From assembly GCA_018920255.1 (NCBI GenBank), contig JAHLMR010000007.1, forward strand, positions 1-29,485: 29,485 nucleotides of DNA, in the 5' to 3' direction. Position 1 is the stretch's first letter, and each line of letters begins with the position of its first letter. Positions 1 through 29,485 of this stretch are shown here, in pieces. The notes beneath the pieces are model-generated. The model was given only the letters and a program-made list of their open reading frames with translations, had not been told where the DNA came from and did not search any database. A program made the translations under genes and the position numbers. This DNA is from Candidatus Aenigmatarchaeota archaeon (GTDB lineage Archaea > Aenigmatarchaeota > Aenigmatarchaeia > Aenigmatarchaeales > JAHLMR01).

Positions 1-534
1 GGAGAATAGGTAGAAGTAAAATATTGATATAGTAAGTATAAAGATATGATAAAGATAATAGCAACTAATATTGGTGGAAAAGCAAATATAGAAAAAATTA
101 ATGCAATTCCAGCAATACTTACTAATCCTAAAAGAATTTCTTGCCAGTGATTTTGAACTGCTCTTAAAATAGCAGAGAAAAAGTTTGCTGAAGCTTCTAA
201 TAGTTTTAAACCTGCTTCAATAAACTTTCCTTGAGAAATTAAATAAAATATAGAAGATATTGTATTAAATCCATCGTTAAATGATTTTTTAAGAAATTTT
301 AAAAGACCAGATAAAGCATCACCATTAGAATTTCCCTTAGTATTTTTATTATAGTAATATATAGCACCAAAGCCTGCTCCAAAACTAATTACAGAACTTA
401 TAATTTTATCAAAAGAAGTTGCTTGTCCGGAGATTGGATTAAAAGGTACTGCAAATCCGGGTAGAGAAAAAGATAGTATAGATAAAAAAATAAAAAGAAA
501 TTGACGTTTAAGGAGTTTATTTATTACTTTCATT
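1..534 (-). CDS. Hypothetical membrane/secreted protein, 5' part only (runs off the left edge)
   Basis: I translated the minus strand by hand from ATG at 534: MKVINKLLKRQFLFIFLSILSFSLPGFAVPFNPISGQ... The frame stays open to position 1. It has a hydrophobic N-terminus and a C-terminal hydrophobic stretch. It is absent from the ORF track because it is truncated. Confidence 0.6.
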
Positions 535-8716: not shown

Positions 8717-8874
8717 GCGCCATTGGTCTAGTGGTAGGATAGGAGCTTCCCAAGCTCTTGGCCTGGGTTCAAAGAACCTTCTTTCTTAAAGAAAGAAGGT
8801 TCATCAAGAAAGACAAATTTTCTTGATGCAACTTCTTTTTTAAAGAAGTTGCGGGATTCCCAGATGGCGCACCA
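8717..8874 (+). tRNA. tRNA-Gly(CCC) with 84-nt T-loop insertion, CCA encoded
   Basis: GCGCCAT-TG-GTCT-AGTGGTA-GGAT-A-GGAGC-TTCCCAA-GCTCT-TGGC-CTGGG-TTCAAA[84 nt]T-CCCAG-ATGGCGC-A-CCA. Confidence 0.85.
8774..8857 (+). other. T-loop intervening sequence of tRNA-Gly(CCC), 84 nt, three hairpin modules
   Basis: Modules: GAACCTTCTTTC-TTAAA-GAAAGAAGGTTC; ATCAAGAAA-GACAAA-TTTTCTTGAT; GCAACTTCTTT-TTT-AAAGAAGTTGC. It ends with GGG-AT before the 3' exon. Confidence 0.7.
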
Positions 8875-8877
8875 TTA

Positions 8878-9798
8878 ATGTTTATATTTAGATTTTTAAA
8901 TTATTTTATTATGAATAAAAGAGAGTTATTTTTATCAGATTTAGCATTAAAACTTTTTGGAAAATGTGTTGAAAAAAATAAAAAAATATTTCAAAATTTT
9001 CGTGCTGCAATTGTTTCATCTGGAATAGAAATTCTTTCAGTAACATATATTTCATGTATGCTTTTATATCTTTGTATAGCTCCATTTATTTCTTTAATTT
9101 TTTCAACGTTTATAATTTTTGTATTAAAATTTATAATAATAAATTGGTTAGTTGATATTTTAATTTACATACTTATATTTGAAATTTTAACATTTTTGAT
9201 ATTTTTTAGTTACCCATATATAAAAATGTCAAATAACACTGCAGAAATAGATAGCAATCTTCCATTTGCTTTAATACATATGCAAACAATTGCTGAAAGT
9301 GGAGCACCACCTATTGTTATTTTTAAACTTTTATCAAACTTTAAGGAATATGGTTATCTTTCTAAAGAATTTCAAAAAATTTCAAGAAATATAGAAATGT
9401 TTGGAATGGATAATATCTCAGCTATAAGAGATGTAATGTTAAAAACTCCATCATCGAATCTTAAAGATATTTTATCTGGAATGATTACAACTATTCAATC
9501 TGGAGGAAAGCTTTCACAATATATTTCTGAAAGAGCTGAACAAATGTTATTTGAATATAAACTCTCAAGAAGAAAATATGAAGAGACACTTACTGCATAT
9601 GCAGATATTTATACTGTAGTATTAATAGCTGCTCCACTTATGCTTGTTATAGTATTAACTATTATTGCAACTATAGGAGGAAATGTTTTTGGTATTCCCC
9701 CAAATTTGCTTATTATAATAAGTGTTTATGGAATAGTTCCATCATTAAATTTAATATTTTTAATTTTTTTACTTATTACTCAACCTAAAGGTGGATAA
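8878..9798 (+). CDS. FlaJ/TadC/PilC-like type IV filament platform membrane protein (T2SS-F domain), part 1
   Basis: LPFALIHMQTIAESGAPPIVIFKLLSN plus multiple TM helices. The true start may be MNKRELF at 8911. Confidence 0.7.
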   Translation: MFIFRFLNYFIMNKRELFLSDLALKLFGKCVEKNKKIFQNFRAAIVSSGIEILSVTYISCMLLYLCIAPFISLIFSTFIIFVLKFIIINWLVDILIYILIFEILTFLIFFSYPYIKMSNNTAEIDSNLPFALIHMQTIAESGAPPIVIFKLLSNFKEYGYLSKEFQKISRNIEMFGMDNISAIRDVMLKTPSSNLKDILSGMITTIQSGGKLSQYISERAEQMLFEYKLSRRKYEETLTAYADIYTVVLIAAPLMLVIVLTIIATIGGNVFGIPPNLLIIISVYGIVPSLNLIFLIFLLITQPKGG

Positions 9799-17800: not shown

Positions 17801-17814
17801 ATAAACACCTAATT

Positions 17815-17998
17815 TGGTGCGCCAGCTGGGAATCCCGCAACTTCTTCGAAGCTTCTTTTTCAAAAAAAGAAGCTTCAGCAAGAAAAACTTTTTAAGTTTT
17901 CTTGATGAAACTTCTTTTTCTAAAAGAAGTTTCGAAGCTTCTTCGAACCCAGGTCAGCAGCTTGGAAGGCTGCGGTCCTACCACTAGACTACTGGCGC
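17815..17998 (-). tRNA. tRNA-Gly(UCC) with 110-nt T-loop insertion, CCA encoded
   Basis: GCGCCAG-TA-GTCT-AGTGGTA-GGAC-C-GCAGC-CTTCCAA-GCTGC-TGAC-CTGGG-TTCGAA[110 nt]T-CCCAG-CTGGCGC-A-CCA. Confidence 0.85.
17832..17941 (-). other. T-loop intervening sequence of tRNA-Gly(UCC), 110 nt
   Basis: T-loop UUCG can pair with the intron-terminal CGGG, followed by a 3-nt bulge AUU, giving a half-BHB at the 3' site. The element shares a 53-nt identical block with the Met/Lys element. Confidence 0.7.
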
Positions 17999-19227: not shown

Positions 19228-20061
19228 TCATAACAGAATTTTTTTAAAAATTTCAATTGTATCAACTGGCTCATATTTTAAATCTTTAATGGTTTTTTGT
19301 ATGTTATAATTTCTATCTTCAAAAAATGCAGAAATTGTTTCTTGGGTTATTGGAGGTTCTATATTAATAAAATTACTTAAATTCTTTATTAGAGCAAATA
19401 TTTTTTTAATAAGCTCTATATCCTTTTTTGTAAAATAAATGATTTTATATTTATCTTTTAATGTATTAGCAAGATTTTGAAATAAAAATGAATTTTTATC
19501 TGCTACATAATATATCTCAGAGTTTCCATGAAATATTGAGAGATATATTGCTTCTACTACTTTTTTAAGATAAACCAAATGAAGGTTTAAATCTTTAATT
19601 ATAGGTAAAATTTTAAATTTTTTTATAAGTTTAAGTCTATTTTCATCATATACTGGTGCAATCCTTAATATTGGTATTTTAATGTTTTTTTGAAAATCAA
19701 AGGCTATTTTTTCTGCTTCTTTTTTACTCTTGGAATATAATGTTTCTGTTTTTTCTGTTACTGCAACAGAACTAATATAAATAACTCTTTCAATTCCTTC
19801 CTCTTCAGCAACCTTTAAAATATTATAAGTACCATTAACATTTATATTTTTTATTTTTTTGTAGTCTCCACTATATTTTTTTAATGCTGCTAAATGAATT
19901 ACAACATCAGAATTTTTTATTGTTTTTTTAATGTGTGATGTATTAGTAATATCATAACCTAAGGATTTTGAAAACATTATAACTTTATGACCTTTATTAT
20001 TAAGATATTTTACAACTTCTTTTCCTATATAACCTGTTGCTCCAGTAACAAAAACCCTCAT
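19228..20061 (-). CDS. NAD-dependent epimerase/dehydratase (SDR) family protein
   Basis: MRVFVTGATGYIGKEVV is a Rossmann GxxGxxG; YSKSK fits YxxxK. Confidence 0.8.
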   Translation of the reverse strand: MRVFVTGATGYIGKEVVKYLNNKGHKVIMFSKSLGYDITNTSHIKKTIKNSDVVIHLAALKKYSGDYKKIKNINVNGTYNILKVAEEEGIERVIYISSVAVTEKTETLYSKSKKEAEKIAFDFQKNIKIPILRIAPVYDENRLKLIKKFKILPIIKDLNLHLVYLKKVVEAIYLSIFHGNSEIYYVADKNSFLFQNLANTLKDKYKIIYFTKKDIELIKKIFALIKNLSNFINIEPPITQETISAFFEDRNYNIQKTIKDLKYEPVDTIEIFKKILL

Positions 20062-20072
20062 AAAAATCTCTT

Positions 20073-20259
20073 TGGTGGGCCCAACGGGATTCTCTGCAAC
20101 TTCTTCGAAGCTTCTTTTTCAAAAAAAGAAGCTTCAGCAAGAAAAACTGTCTTTCTTGATGCAACTTCTTTTTTAAAGAAGTTGCAAAGAAGGTTCTTCT
20201 TTGAACCCGCGACCTTCCGCTTAAGAGGCGGTTGCTCTACCAGACTGAGCTATGGACCC
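20073..20259 (-). tRNA. tRNA-Lys(CUU) with 110-nt T-loop insertion, CCA encoded
   Basis: GGGTCCA-TA-GCTC-AGTCTGGTA-GAGC-A-ACCGC-CTCTTAA-GCGGA-AGGTC-GCGGG-TTCAAA[110 nt]T-CCCGT-TGGGCCC-A-CCA. One A27/A43 mismatch and two G:U pairs. Confidence 0.85.
20090..20199 (-). other. T-loop intervening sequence of tRNA-Lys, 110 nt, identical to the tRNA(CAU) copy
   Basis: 20092-20216 equals 651-775 base for base in my manual alignment. Confidence 0.75.
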
Positions 20260-23776: not shown

Positions 23777-24385
23777 TTAATCACCTGTATTTAATATTTT
23801 TGCTAAATTTCTTTTTGAAAGCATTTCAGCTATTTCAATTGGAAGATTAATTCTTTCATTGCATGAATATGGCCCGTACTCTTTTTCGTCAGGACCCAAA
23901 AATCTTGGTATATCTTGTATAATTAAAACTTCACAGTTGTTTTCTAATCTTTTTTCTTCTTTTATTTCAAGAATTTTATTTTTTGCTTCAGAAATTTTTT
24001 CTTCAACTATAGTTGTATAATCAAAAATCCTTCCTCGAATTTGATCTTTATAATTTTTCATAAGAAGTATAAGCTCGTCGAAAAATTTTTGCTCTTCTTC
24101 CGTCATATTTTTTAATGGTAATTCACCTCTAATTGTTCTAAGAGCACCTAATACAATTTTTTTCATTCTTCTATTTATAATATCCTCTAAAAGAAGTTTT
24201 GCATTTTTTACTTCTATTATAGATTCCGGATTTTTAGAATTCTGTTTTTGATTAAACCATAAAGAAACTGATTTATAAAAATCATTAGGAAGTTTTGATA
24301 AAGTTCCTTTTTCATCTTCTTTTTTTTCTTCTCTGTTAATCATTCTTATATATTCATAGGTTATTATTTCAGTCATTTTTATCAC
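23777..24385 (-). CDS. GINS subunit (Gins51/Gins15-like)
   Basis: ITYEYIRMINREEK...LSKLPNDFYKSV...NAKLLLEDIINRRMKKI is a typical Gins51 N-terminal pattern. It sits immediately downstream of the primase, a conserved archaeal pairing. Confidence 0.6.
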   Translation of the reverse strand: MIKMTEIITYEYIRMINREEKKEDEKGTLSKLPNDFYKSVSLWFNQKQNSKNPESIIEVKNAKLLLEDIINRRMKKIVLGALRTIRGELPLKNMTEEEQKFFDELILLMKNYKDQIRGRIFDYTTIVEEKISEAKNKILEIKEEKRLENNCEVLIIQDIPRFLGPDEKEYGPYSCNERINLPIEIAEMLSKRNLAKILNTGD

Positions 24386-25668
24386 TTATTTTTATTCTTT
24401 TTAATAGATTTATTATTTTTCATTTCTTTTAAATAAAGTGAAATTGCATAGTTTACCGGATTTTTTTTACAATTTTCATTTTTTTGACATATTCCTATTG
24501 ATTTATAATATAAATCAGAATCGCAATTTGCTGGCATTAAAACTCTTGATTGTCTTGCATGCCATTTAATTTGAGTTGTTATATATCTTTCTGAAAGTTT
24601 TTGTGTGTTTTTCGAATTCCATTCTAAAAGAATTTTTTCAATATCCTGAATATTCCAACCAACATTTTGTAAAAATGTTATAATTGTAAAAATAGATCTT
24701 TTTTTACCATCTGAAAGACCCTTTAAAATATTTTTTATACAAGGTGGAAAATATTTTTCTGGTATTTTAAATCCTATTTTTATATTTTTTTTCTTTTCTT
24801 CTATCTTTTGTGGTTTAAAAAATCCAGTTTCAGCAGCCCATTTAAATGCTGCATCAATAAGATCATTTGCTTCATCTTTTTTATTAATAAGAAAATCAGC
24901 ATATATTTTTGGTTTTTTAAAATCAGCCCATTCTATATTAAAGTTTTTTATATCTGATATTTTTATTGGAATTGAAATTTTCCATGTTTTTTCATTAAAT
25001 GAGTAAGGCATTCTAAACAAATGCCTTACTCCCCAATTTTTTTCTATTTCAACAAATTCATAAGGTGATAATTCTTTTAAAGATGGTATAAGATTTATTA
25101 AAGAGCTATAGCCGCCTTCTAATGCAACAAGTCTTTCAAGTAAGCGATCTTTAATTTTTTCACTTATAAAAGAAGAAATTAATCTTGGGAGATTTGGATA
25201 AAATTCTGAAATTGATTTACCATTTATTTTTTCTGGAAATGCGTTAGAAGCTATTGCAATATGAAAACCCCTTCTTCCACTAAACTTAATAGTTGGAGAT
25301 ATTGAATACTGTTTAAGAAACTCGCATACTTCAATTGCACATTCTTTAGAATGTTCTAATTTAACTTTAGAATCAATATCTATTATCAAATCAAACCCAC
25401 AACGAAGTTTATTTAATTCTAATTCATTTGACGTTATACTCATTGGTTGTGACCAATGCTCAACAGAACAATGGAATGCAACTGCTCCTTTCTCTACTCT
25501 TTCAACAATATCTCTAGAGTATAATAAAATATCTGGTCTTTTTAAATAAATACCATCTGATGTTACAGAAACAACTTCTCTATTTTTTGAAAAAGAAAGA
25601 ATTTTTTCTTGAATAATCTTATTTGAATAGTAATTTAGAATTTCTTCTTTAGATAAGCTTTCTACCAT
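24382..25668 (-). CDS. DNA primase, fused PriS catalytic domain + PriL C-terminal Fe-S domain
   Basis: AEP motifs FDLIIDIDSK, SGRRGFHI and FRMPYSFNEKT. C-terminal YFPPCIKNILKGLSDGKKRSIFTIITFLQNVGW plus Cys in ANC, GIC and ENC resembles PriL-CTD. Confidence 0.8.
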   Translation of the reverse strand: MVESLSKEEILNYYSNKIIQEKILSFSKNREVVSVTSDGIYLKRPDILLYSRDIVERVEKGAVAFHCSVEHWSQPMSITSNELELNKLRCGFDLIIDIDSKVKLEHSKECAIEVCEFLKQYSISPTIKFSGRRGFHIAIASNAFPEKINGKSISEFYPNLPRLISSFISEKIKDRLLERLVALEGGYSSLINLIPSLKELSPYEFVEIEKNWGVRHLFRMPYSFNEKTWKISIPIKISDIKNFNIEWADFKKPKIYADFLINKKDEANDLIDAAFKWAAETGFFKPQKIEEKKKNIKIGFKIPEKYFPPCIKNILKGLSDGKKRSIFTIITFLQNVGWNIQDIEKILLEWNSKNTQKLSERYITTQIKWHARQSRVLMPANCDSDLYYKSIGICQKNENCKKNPVNYAISLYLKEMKNNKSIKKNKNK

Positions 25669-28131: not shown

Positions 28132-28155
28132 ATTAAGTAGATATTAGATTCCTAT

Positions 28156-28222
28156 TTTACATTTTTAACTTCAGTAAATACTAATTCTCTGTCTTTTGTT
28201 TTTGAAATAATATCGAATTTTA
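28156..28222 (-). pseudogene. Decayed fragment of the PD-(D/E)xK-like gene found at 29129-29485
   Basis: 67 nt with 4 mismatches versus 29349-29415. It translates as KFDIISKTKDRELVFTEVKNVK and is bounded by stops on both sides. Confidence 0.7.
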
Positions 28223-29128: not shown

Positions 29129-29485
29129 TCAATCAACCTTATCTATTACTATTATATCAATATTATATATTGATTTAAATTCTTCTAATTTATTTAAAAT
29201 AGTTTTTGGTATTTTTTCATGTGATATAAATCTATATTTAATTTTTTGATTAATTTCAATGTTTTTAAGAAAAATAAGATGTGATTTTATTTGTTTTATT
29301 ATTTCTTTGAAATCTTTAGTTTCGGAATTTTCATAAATTTTTTCCCAATTTACATTTTTAACTTCAGTAAATACTAATTCTCCATCTTTTGTTTCTGAAA
29401 TAATATCGAATTCTATGTTTTCTGTTTCTTTTTCTCTAATTCTTTTAATCTCTTTAATAGCATTTTCATTTATTTTAATATTTTT
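29129..29485 (-). CDS. C-terminal part of a PD-(D/E)xK-like nuclease-fold protein (possibly DUF234-type), 5' end outside the window
   Basis: I translated 118 codons plus stop by hand, in frame to the window edge. The core is EFDIISETKDGELVFTEVKNVNW (D...E-x-K). Confidence 0.55.
   Translation of the reverse strand, partial: KNIKINENAIKEIKRIREKETENIEFDIISETKDGELVFTEVKNVNWEKIYENSETKDFKEIIKQIKSHLIFLKNIEINQKIKYRFISHEKIPKTILNKLEEFKSIYNIDIIVIDKVD
29349..29415 (-). repeat. Direct repeat partner of 28156-28222
   Basis: 63/67 identical in a manual alignment. The two copies are 1193 bp apart and bracket the 282-aa gene. Confidence 0.8.

Follow-up and report, generated by a model that had tools for sequence, protein, structure and literature searches.

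Introns inserted in the T-loop of archaeal tRNA genes, between positions 59 and 60, are known from ARMAN-2, in which a 13-nt intron of the hBH type in the pre-tRNA-Cys is cleaved in vitro by the organism's own endonuclease, and the tRNA-Pro bears introns at both 53/54 and 59/60 (PMC3239211; PMC5829648). Positions 20/21 and 59/60 are known non-canonical sites of tRNA introns (PMC4090602). As outlined in the same source, large-scale intron transposition has been described for the Thermoproteales (Fujishima 2010, Mol Biol Evol 27:2233), and dispersed tRNA genes of yeast undergo intergenic gene conversion (Amstutz et al. 1985; Heyer et al. 1986). In several DPANN lineages, L3-loop EndAs (splicing endonucleases) occur and are linked to greater tRNA gene disruption (PMC5829648). 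Here, we describe a family of introns in a 29,485-nt stretch of DNA of Candidatus Aenigmatarchaeota archaeon (contig JAHLMR010000007.1 of the assembly GCA_018920255.1, positions 1 to 29,485 of the forward strand), which is called the window below. Each of the window's four tRNA genes has a member of this family at position 59/60, and the introns of two of these genes, tRNA-Lys(CUU) and tRNA-Met(CAU), are identical over 110 nt. This identity probably results from a recent ectopic gene conversion among intron-bearing tRNA genes, whose introns are predicted to be spliced by the endonuclease at a relaxed hBH motif.

The introns of the window resemble that of ARMAN-2 in their DPANN host, in the point of insertion into the T-loop, and in the layout of the splicing motif, in which the T-stem would serve as the outer helix, the 3′ cut would fall in a 3-nt bulge, and the T-loop bases 54–57 would form a short helix. 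However, the ARMAN-2 intron is single and has a length of 13 nt, whereas those of the window are 84–112 nt long, rich in hairpins, and form a paralogous family in four tRNA genes; cleavage was demonstrated in vitro for ARMAN-2 and is inferred from sequence for the window introns. The likeness to the Thermoproteales, as these are presented in PMC4090602, lies in near-identical introns in tRNAs of differing amino-acid identity within one genome, which are read as a recent spread at the DNA level, with the bulge–helix–bulge (BHB) requirement setting the permissible sites. The sequence-only reading of this DNA had noted that such transposition was proposed for the Thermoproteales, and the proposal is indeed found in that source. 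In contrast to the Thermoproteales, which are Crenarchaeota and carry introns at many canonical and non-canonical positions, the present family belongs to a DPANN archaeon and is confined to 59/60; further differences are the zero-divergence pair, a mosaic copy, and a tRNA-Lys site that is already occupied in relatives. The yeast case, as cited there, has in common with ours the short-tract, non-reciprocal transfer, introns included, that homogenises dispersed tRNA genes; the yeast genes, however, are of the same isodecoder and eukaryotic, whereas the genes considered here serve different amino acids and share homology mainly in the intron and the T-arm.

Functionally, the introns of the window appear to be of the archaeal endonuclease type, of the relaxed hBH class, and at a known non-canonical position. 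The new aspects are their lineage, the Aenigmarchaeota (DPANN), the restriction of a family to one site, the zero-divergence pair, and the mosaic copy as a clue to the mechanism. The sharing of introns among tRNA genes is thus extended from Thermoproteales to DPANN archaea, and the zero-divergence pair, the defined ends of the tract, the mosaic copy, and the occupied site in orthologues point to homologous DNA exchange rather than to insertion at the RNA level.

Script extension of the match within the window indicated that positions 649–776 equal positions 20090–20217 over 128 nt without a mismatch; if one 1-nt gap is allowed, the match grows to 133 nt (644–776 versus 20086–20217). The identity reported earlier, of 651–775 with 20092–20216, is therefore real, and the exact run is 3 nt longer. 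It comprises tRNA positions 42–59 and the 110/112-nt insert at the T-loop position 59/60. In the tRNA sense, its 5′ limit is position 41/42, where the anticodon stems diverge, and its 3′ limit is one additional A in the Met copy; the extended match thus ends at the boundaries that had been described, the anticodon stems and the 3′ junction. The interval 20073–20259, to which the earlier description referred, is exactly the tRNA-Lys(CUU) gene with its encoded CCA. A repeat finder applied to the window ranked the 128-nt repeat first (family D1) and flagged two weaker relatives of the element near 8757–8884 and 17801–17889, and a three-block consensus of the element matched the window four times, with 0.00 matches expected from shuffles. 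The surrounding genome had been regarded as otherwise non-repetitive; as far as the element is concerned, this is wrong, since related copies are present at 8774–8857 and 17832–17941. Counting them all, there are four copies in the window, hosted by tRNA-Lys, tRNA-Met, tRNA-Gly(CCC), and tRNA-Gly(UCC), each at 59/60.

In the raw window, neither ARAGORN nor Rfam at the gathering threshold revealed a tRNA. Rfam at E ≤ 1 returned only partial tRNA matches, one of them at 20188–20253 within the tRNA-Lys gene, and chance hairpin matches to miRNA and sRNA models. In both repeat copies, a minus-strand tRNA-like sequence is interrupted directly after TTCAAA of the T-loop. After removal of the inserts at 59/60, ARAGORN calls Lys(ctt), Gly(ccc), Gly(tcc), and Met(cat), none of which is called before excision, and precise excision restores the canonical cloverleaf with a 7-nt T-loop in all four genes (Table 1). 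The call of tRNA-Met(cat) requires that 834–848 and 781–816 be removed too; the four exons joined make up 77 nt with every stem Watson–Crick paired, and the D-loop AGCCUGGUA is regained once the 15-nt intron is taken out. The two identical inserts are thus introns of two different tRNA genes, as had been supposed, and their excision restores tRNA-Lys and tRNA-Met. The two other introns of tRNA-Met, in the D-loop and at 37/38, have no sequence relationship to the 59/60 family. CCA is encoded in all four genes. The tRNA-Met has a G1–C72 pair and an anticodon stem without a run of three G–C pairs; judging by the general features of archaeal initiators, it is presumably an elongator and not an initiator.

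Since neither ARAGORN nor Rfam, at normal thresholds, detects any of the window's four tRNA genes, standard annotation under-counts tRNAs here. The tRNA counts of metagenome-assembled genomes (MAGs) of this kind, and the estimates of completeness or coding capacity that use them, will be too low. An under-counting of tRNAs in DPANN genomes has been suspected previously (PMC5829648). Concerning the surroundings of tRNA-Lys, the ATG of a NAD-dependent epimerase gene (19228–20061) is located just 12 nt downstream of the CCA end on the same strand.

Table 1. Repeat copies, tRNA genes, and introns of the window, and tRNA genes with 59/60 introns in loci of DPANN relatives (coordinates of the latter refer to their own loci).
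Feature	Coordinates	Strand	Details
Repeat copy 1	649–776	−	tRNA positions 42–59 (18 nt of exon) and 110 nt of intron, in tRNA-Met
Repeat copy 2	20090–20217	−	in tRNA-Lys
tRNA-Lys(CUU) gene	20073–20259	−	187 nt; exons 20200–20259, 20073–20089; spliced form 77 nt (ARAGORN)
tRNA-Lys 59/60 intron	20090–20199	−	110 nt; four hairpins from AAGAAG/CUUCUU motifs
tRNA-Met(CAU) gene	630–869	−	240 nt, three introns; exons 849–869, 817–833, 759–780, 630–646
tRNA-Met 59/60 intron	647–758	−	112 nt; first 110 nt identical to the tRNA-Lys intron
tRNA-Met 37/38 intron	781–816	−	36 nt, canonical site; CUCA/UGAG central helix between 3-nt bulges
tRNA-Met D-loop intron	834–848	−	15 nt, about position 20/21; CCUG/CAGG helix
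tRNA-Gly(CCC) gene	8717–8874	+	84-nt 59/60 intron at 8774–8857; three consecutive perfect hairpins
tRNA-Gly(UCC) gene	17815–17998	−	110-nt 59/60 intron at 17832–17941; ARAGORN call after excision
tRNA-Lys(CUU), relative L043	5641–5815	+	48-nt 59/60 intron and anticodon-loop intron
tRNA-Lys(CUU), relative L049	16–216	+	13-nt 59/60, 64-nt 53/54, and anticodon-loop introns
tRNA-Lys(UUU), relative L110			31-nt 59/60 intron
tRNA-Val(UAC), relative L104			100-nt 59/60 intron

Alignment of the four T-arm and intron segments of the window indicated clear homology. All four introns have GAA after A59, CATCAAGAAA...TTTCTTG in the middle, and the end AAGAAGTTGC followed by the helix strand, and each consists of successive hairpins assembled from AAGAAG/CUUCUU. 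These hairpins are well formed (z = −5.5 versus shuffles), and inspection of the intron by eye revealed neither C/D-box motifs nor coding potential. High similarity within one genome thus extends across isoacceptors to a different degree: the introns of Lys and Met are 100% identical, the Gly(UCC) intron agrees exactly with the Lys/Met intron over a run of 53 nt that is limited to the 3′ half, and the Gly(CCC) intron is homologous to the family but lacks one hairpin. Elsewhere in the alignment of Gly(UCC) with Lys/Met, the longest common run is 11 nt, and the 5′ half is diverged. As the rest of the family is only ~60–75% identical over the aligned T-arm and intron, conservation alone is not sufficient to explain the Lys/Met identity, and the zero divergence of this pair does imply recent copying, as the sequence-only reading had stated. 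The insertion position is 59/60 for all four copies in the four tRNA genes sampled, and no second position is used by the family.

When the Gly(CCC) intron (8774–8857) is compared with the Lys/Met intron (666–744), the reverse complement gives 86% identity over 79 nt, and the sense orientation gives 81% over 70 nt; one Gly(CCC) hairpin is identical in that comparison save for the loop TTT instead of AAA. This reverse-complement similarity is probably a by-product of the palindromic modules, although the inversion of a module is possible. The match is not taken as evidence of an inverted insertion, because the palindromic hairpins account for it.

The 59/60 introns are apparently removed by the archaeal tRNA splicing endonuclease. 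They lie in tRNA genes of a window that carries archaeal marker genes, and in the layout of the motif the T-arm takes the role that the anticodon arm has in 37/38 introns. The outer helix would be the T-stem, and U54–C56 (together with G57 in Gly-UCC) would pair with 3–4 intron bases located three nucleotides before position 61; the resulting 3-nt bulge would carry the 3′ cut, and the 5′ cut would be located two bases beyond the helix. When the T-arm of Gly(UCC) is folded together with its intron, without constraints and at minimum free energy, the T-stem, a contiguous 4-bp UUCG/CGGG helix, and a 3-nt bulge AUU on the 3′ strand are obtained; the T-loop UUCGAAU results if the bulge is cut after its second base and the 5′ strand is cut two bases beyond the helix. 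Possible layouts of the other copies are a helix of UUCA with CGGG, the bulge AUU, and the T-loop UUCAAAU for Gly(CCC); UUCA with AGAG, AAU, and UUCAAAU for Lys; and UUCA with AGAA, AUC, and UUCAAAC for Met. The central helix of each of these three has three pairs and an A–C or A–A mismatch. By our reading, the extra A in Met may hold the C56–G pair in register, given the different position 60 of this tRNA. A consensus fold of the three distinct copies retains the T-stem and the pairing of U54–U55–C56.

The outer helix, the 3-nt bulge, the central helix, and both cuts in register correspond to the relaxed hBH motif, also termed bulge–helix–loop (BHL). The 59/60 introns do not have the strict hBHBh′ (helix–bulge–helix–bulge–helix) form: a clear bulge is seen on the 3′ side alone, the cut on the 5′ side is located in an internal or multibranch loop, and G–U or A–A occurs in the central helix, which has 3–4 bp. 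The strict form is present in the 37/38 intron of tRNA-Met, as read directly from the sequence.

No homologue of the element was found in 692 kb around the eIF2-alpha genes of 80 DPANN relatives. A scan of the GTDB species representatives with the pattern GGTTCRAAGAA..AAGAAGTTGC gave 34 stretches, all of them chance matches in coding DNA of unrelated organisms, so that the source species itself was not among them; the three-block pattern had zero matches in JGI metagenomes, and two scans of viral contigs revealed no real homologue. In the literature searched for tRNA introns of Aenigmarchaeota or DPANN archaea, we found no description of a shared intron family of this kind.

The excision scanner, applied to the relatives' loci, revealed 59/60 introns in the tRNA genes of L043, L049, L110, and L104 (Table 1). 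They are unrelated in sequence to the family of the window, and their excision yields tRNAs. A perfect UUCA/UGAA helix with a 3-nt bulge can be read from the sequences of the tRNA-Val of L104 and the tRNA-Lys(UUU) of L110, and the tRNA-Lys(CUU) genes of L043 and L049 show a weaker version of this design. The pair of introns at 53/54 and 59/60 in L049, whose eIF2-alpha is 51% identical to that of the host, is the arrangement of the ARMAN-2 tRNA-Pro. The anticodon-loop intron of L043 appears to be at 36/37 and not at 37/38; ARAGORN with the intron option takes this gene for tRNA-Leu(taa), an assignment that we rejected, since manual splicing gives tRNA-Lys(ctt).

All three tRNA-Lys genes recovered from the relatives thus have an intron at 59/60 (13, 31, and 48 nt), and no intact tRNA-Lys is present among the 46 ARAGORN-callable tRNAs of these loci. 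Since every recovered tRNA-Lys gene has an intron there, the occupied site in tRNA-Lys is old. Orthologues of Met(CAU), Gly(UCC), and Gly(CCC) were not recovered from the relatives' loci; in the synteny-based search, the closest relative L040 (eIF2-alpha 62%) had no detectable tRNA, and synteny was lost in L044. The intron sequence of the window is absent from all other genomes sampled, though the tRNA-Lys orthologues hold an intron at the same site. The occurrence of 59/60 introns in four of the four tRNA genes of the window suggests their spread within the host lineage.

The host is an AT-rich Aenigmarchaeota (DPANN) population. The GC content of the window is 25%, and archaeal proteins, namely deoxyhypusine synthase, a fused PriS/PriL primase, an S-layer protein, and TruD, are encoded in it. 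The eIF2-alpha is 100% identical to an NCBI protein of Candidatus Aenigmatarchaeota archaeon, whereas the next relative has 62% identity and others ≤53%. Exact-protein look-ups retrieved the same region from GCA_038998125.1 (L001, L046), GCA_038999495.1 (L002, L004, L211), GCA_038998315.1 (L003, L210), GCA_038999525.1 (L047, L212), and the Logan assembly of SRR27170999 (L005, L048), all of which match the window at 99.0–99.98% identity. GCA_038998125.1, GCA_038999495.1, and GCA_038999525.1 have the Lys and Gly(UCC) genes at 100% identity and with unique flanks; the complete Met gene, together with the unique flanks on its two sides, is likewise 100% identical in GCA_038998315.1 and GCA_038999525.1. 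One of these two Met-bearing MAGs also has the Lys locus, on a separate contig.

It is hardly credible that the identity is an assembly artefact absent from the genome, with one of the loci being a chimera or a collapsed repeat. The 128-nt repeat is near the short-read length, and some assemblies do break there: L004 ends at the window position 650, L005 at 747, and L048 at 20188. Such contig breaks at repeat edges are, however, the expected product of a true two-copy repeat in a short-read assembly graph. Both loci recur with unchanged unique flanks in at least 3–4 independent MAG assemblies, which differ by up to about 1% elsewhere. Moreover, the acceptor strands pair across each copy (GGGUCCA/UGGGCCC in Lys, GUCGGGG/CCCCGAC in Met), and a switch of loci inside the repeat would have mispaired them. 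On the evidence of these assemblies, the chimera that the sequence-only reading had named as a possible refutation is essentially excluded.

Gene conversion among resident introns would proceed as follows. A species-specific, hairpin-rich family holds one and the same site in the window's four tRNA genes, and the perfect identity of Lys and Met would most likely have arisen through a recent homologous exchange of DNA that was not reciprocal (concerted evolution). The partners would be tRNA genes previously carrying members of the family, the homology would be provided by the T-arm exon and the common intron blocks, and the converted tract would be at most 128–133 nt, from tRNA position 42 to the 3′ end of the intron. 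Homologous exchange is favoured because the identity continues 18 nt into the 5′ exon, the mosaic tract ends inside the intron, and the Lys orthologues have a pre-existing intron. In relatives, 59/60 introns of unrelated sequence are already present in tRNA-Lys, so that the tRNA-Lys case is one of replacement or homogenisation and not of gain. The Met and Gly introns appear to have been acquired within the host lineage, and Met or Gly probably gained some introns at an earlier time. A simple pair of donor and naive recipient, as pictured at the outset, is not supported: the family has four members, and the tRNA-Lys site is already occupied in relatives. Of the mechanisms then listed, gene conversion fits best, whereas whole-intron transposition and reverse splicing disagree with the Gly(UCC) mosaic.

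Several points weigh against this reading or against its splicing component. Splicing in vivo is something that we infer; the central helix in Lys and Met has only 3 bp plus an A–A mismatch, the unconstrained Lys/Met folds favour the pairing of GGGUUC with GAACC of the intron over the T-stem, and covariation is uninformative with three distinct copies. The genome sample is ~38 kb (the window and an extra 8.5 kb of the population), and no EndA gene was found in it. The 18 exon bases of the tract (variable loop AGGUC, T-stem GCGGG, and UUCAAA) occur widely among archaeal tRNAs and hence leave a co-conversion of the exon unproven. The hints on the direction of the transfer also conflict. A27–A43 is mispaired in Lys and paired in Met, and the variable loop AGGUC of Lys equals that of Met and not ATGCC of the Lys orthologues; read this way, the two features suggest a transfer from Met to Lys. 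The 3′ end of the intron, GAGAA(A)AU, in turn resembles the end of the L049 Lys intron, which suggests that the family may have begun in Lys. The G49–U65 wobble in tRNA-Lys was considered as a scar of co-conversion from Met and rejected, because three relatives' Lys genes have the same GCGGG/CCCGU T-stem.

A true intron transposition, in which the whole excised intron or its DNA copy was inserted at a BHB-capable site and the second copy arose de novo, is an unlikely alternative to gene conversion. It could have proceeded in the RNA form through reverse splicing followed by reverse transcription and recombination. In its favour, the identity spans the entire intron, and the family resides in different isoacceptors (Lys, Met, and two Gly). 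Introns at 59/60 are present in four of the four tRNAs of the window versus 3, detected by the scan and on visual inspection, in addition to the 46 tRNAs that ARAGORN called in the 692 kb of relatives, a contrast that suggests a lineage-specific spread needing at least some Met or Gly gains; the phenomenon as such, unlike its mechanism, is accepted in the literature (PMC4090602). What speaks against it is the mosaic of Gly(UCC): its 53-nt exact tract is limited to the 3′ half, and neither whole-intron transposition nor reverse splicing is able to produce this. The 59/60 intron that relatives' tRNA-Lys had already and the continuation of the identity into the 5′ exon speak in the same direction; all copies are at a single position, unlike the multi-position families of Thermoproteales, and a reverse transcriptase was not seen in the window. 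Somewhat less likely again is that the hairpin-module element is an actively mobile, self-propagating intron that homed to the T-loop position 59/60 and recently swept many tRNA genes of the species; it may have entered them by the splicing endonuclease and ligase acting in reverse, or as a palindromic piece of DNA directed to GTTCRAA. If true, this would be the first archaeal tRNA-intron mobility caught in progress, with readable breakpoints.

Improbable, too, is a non-autonomous DNA transposon similar to miniature inverted-repeat transposable elements (MITEs) or palindrome-associated transposable elements (PATEs), which would target GTTCRAA of the T-loop and be tolerated through splicing out as an intron. 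Like MITEs and PATEs (non-autonomous IS200/IS605 derivatives), the introns are small, non-coding, multicopy, and rich in hairpins, with the body of the element being a string of palindromic hairpins; they are constantly adjacent to a fixed short sequence and have ends resembling inverted repeats. The imperfect inverted ends of the Lys/Met element are TTCTTTGCAACTTCTT and TTCTCTGCAACTTCTT (reverse complement of the 3′ end), and the inverted match near the ends is 15/16; the whole element, however, consists of the same palindromic motif, and the match is hence non-specific. The palindromic build likewise explains why the reverse complement of the Lys intron matches Gly(CCC) no less well than the sense strand does. 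At the junctions, short direct repeats (AGAA, GA) can be read, but with 2–4 nt of A/G they are statistically weightless; in contrast to MITEs and PATEs, no convincing target-site duplication is present, and the junctions fit an RNA splicing motif. No copy was found outside tRNA T-loops in the sample of about 38 kb, the ten open reading frames of the window that were scanned contain no transposase domain, all copies have a single orientation relative to the tRNA, and viral contigs and other genomes yielded zero homologues. The lack of non-T-loop copies, the absence of a visible transposase, and the negligible junction repeats thus disfavour a transposon; copies outside tRNAs, target-site duplications, and a cognate transposase, by which a MITE is recognised, are all missing in this sample.

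Very improbable is an old duplication whose copies, without recent transfer, have stayed identical because the intron RNA is functional and under strong purifying selection. In its favour, strains that are 0.5–1% different elsewhere show zero differences in the four pre-tRNA genes, and the hairpins are well formed; however, at the observed strain divergence only ~2 intron differences are expected by our estimate, and their absence is not significant. The two Gly copies are strongly diverged, and one of them is devoid of a whole hairpin, so most of the intron sequence is not tightly constrained. The absence of the intron from all other sampled genomes is a further point against such selection. 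Gene conversion among resident introns therefore remains the favoured explanation.

Some other features of the region can be noted. The fused PriS/PriL primase is a 428-aa open reading frame (24382–25668, minus strand) with both the small- and the large-subunit domains. The gene running off the start of the window (1–533, minus strand) has a paralogue ~0.9 kb past the opposite end of the window (13652–14750 in L003; 6529–7563 in L046), with a similarity of 97.8% over the window positions 1–509 and of 92% over 1.1 kb. Two direct repeats thus bracket this segment of roughly 30 kb. The copy of the paralogue in GCA_038998125.1 looks frameshifted, and, by coordinate arithmetic, one MAG contig appears to end inside the paralogue repeat. 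Finally, a 74-nt direct repeat with 92% identity (28149–28222 versus 29342–29415, family D3) is probably part of paralogous genes.

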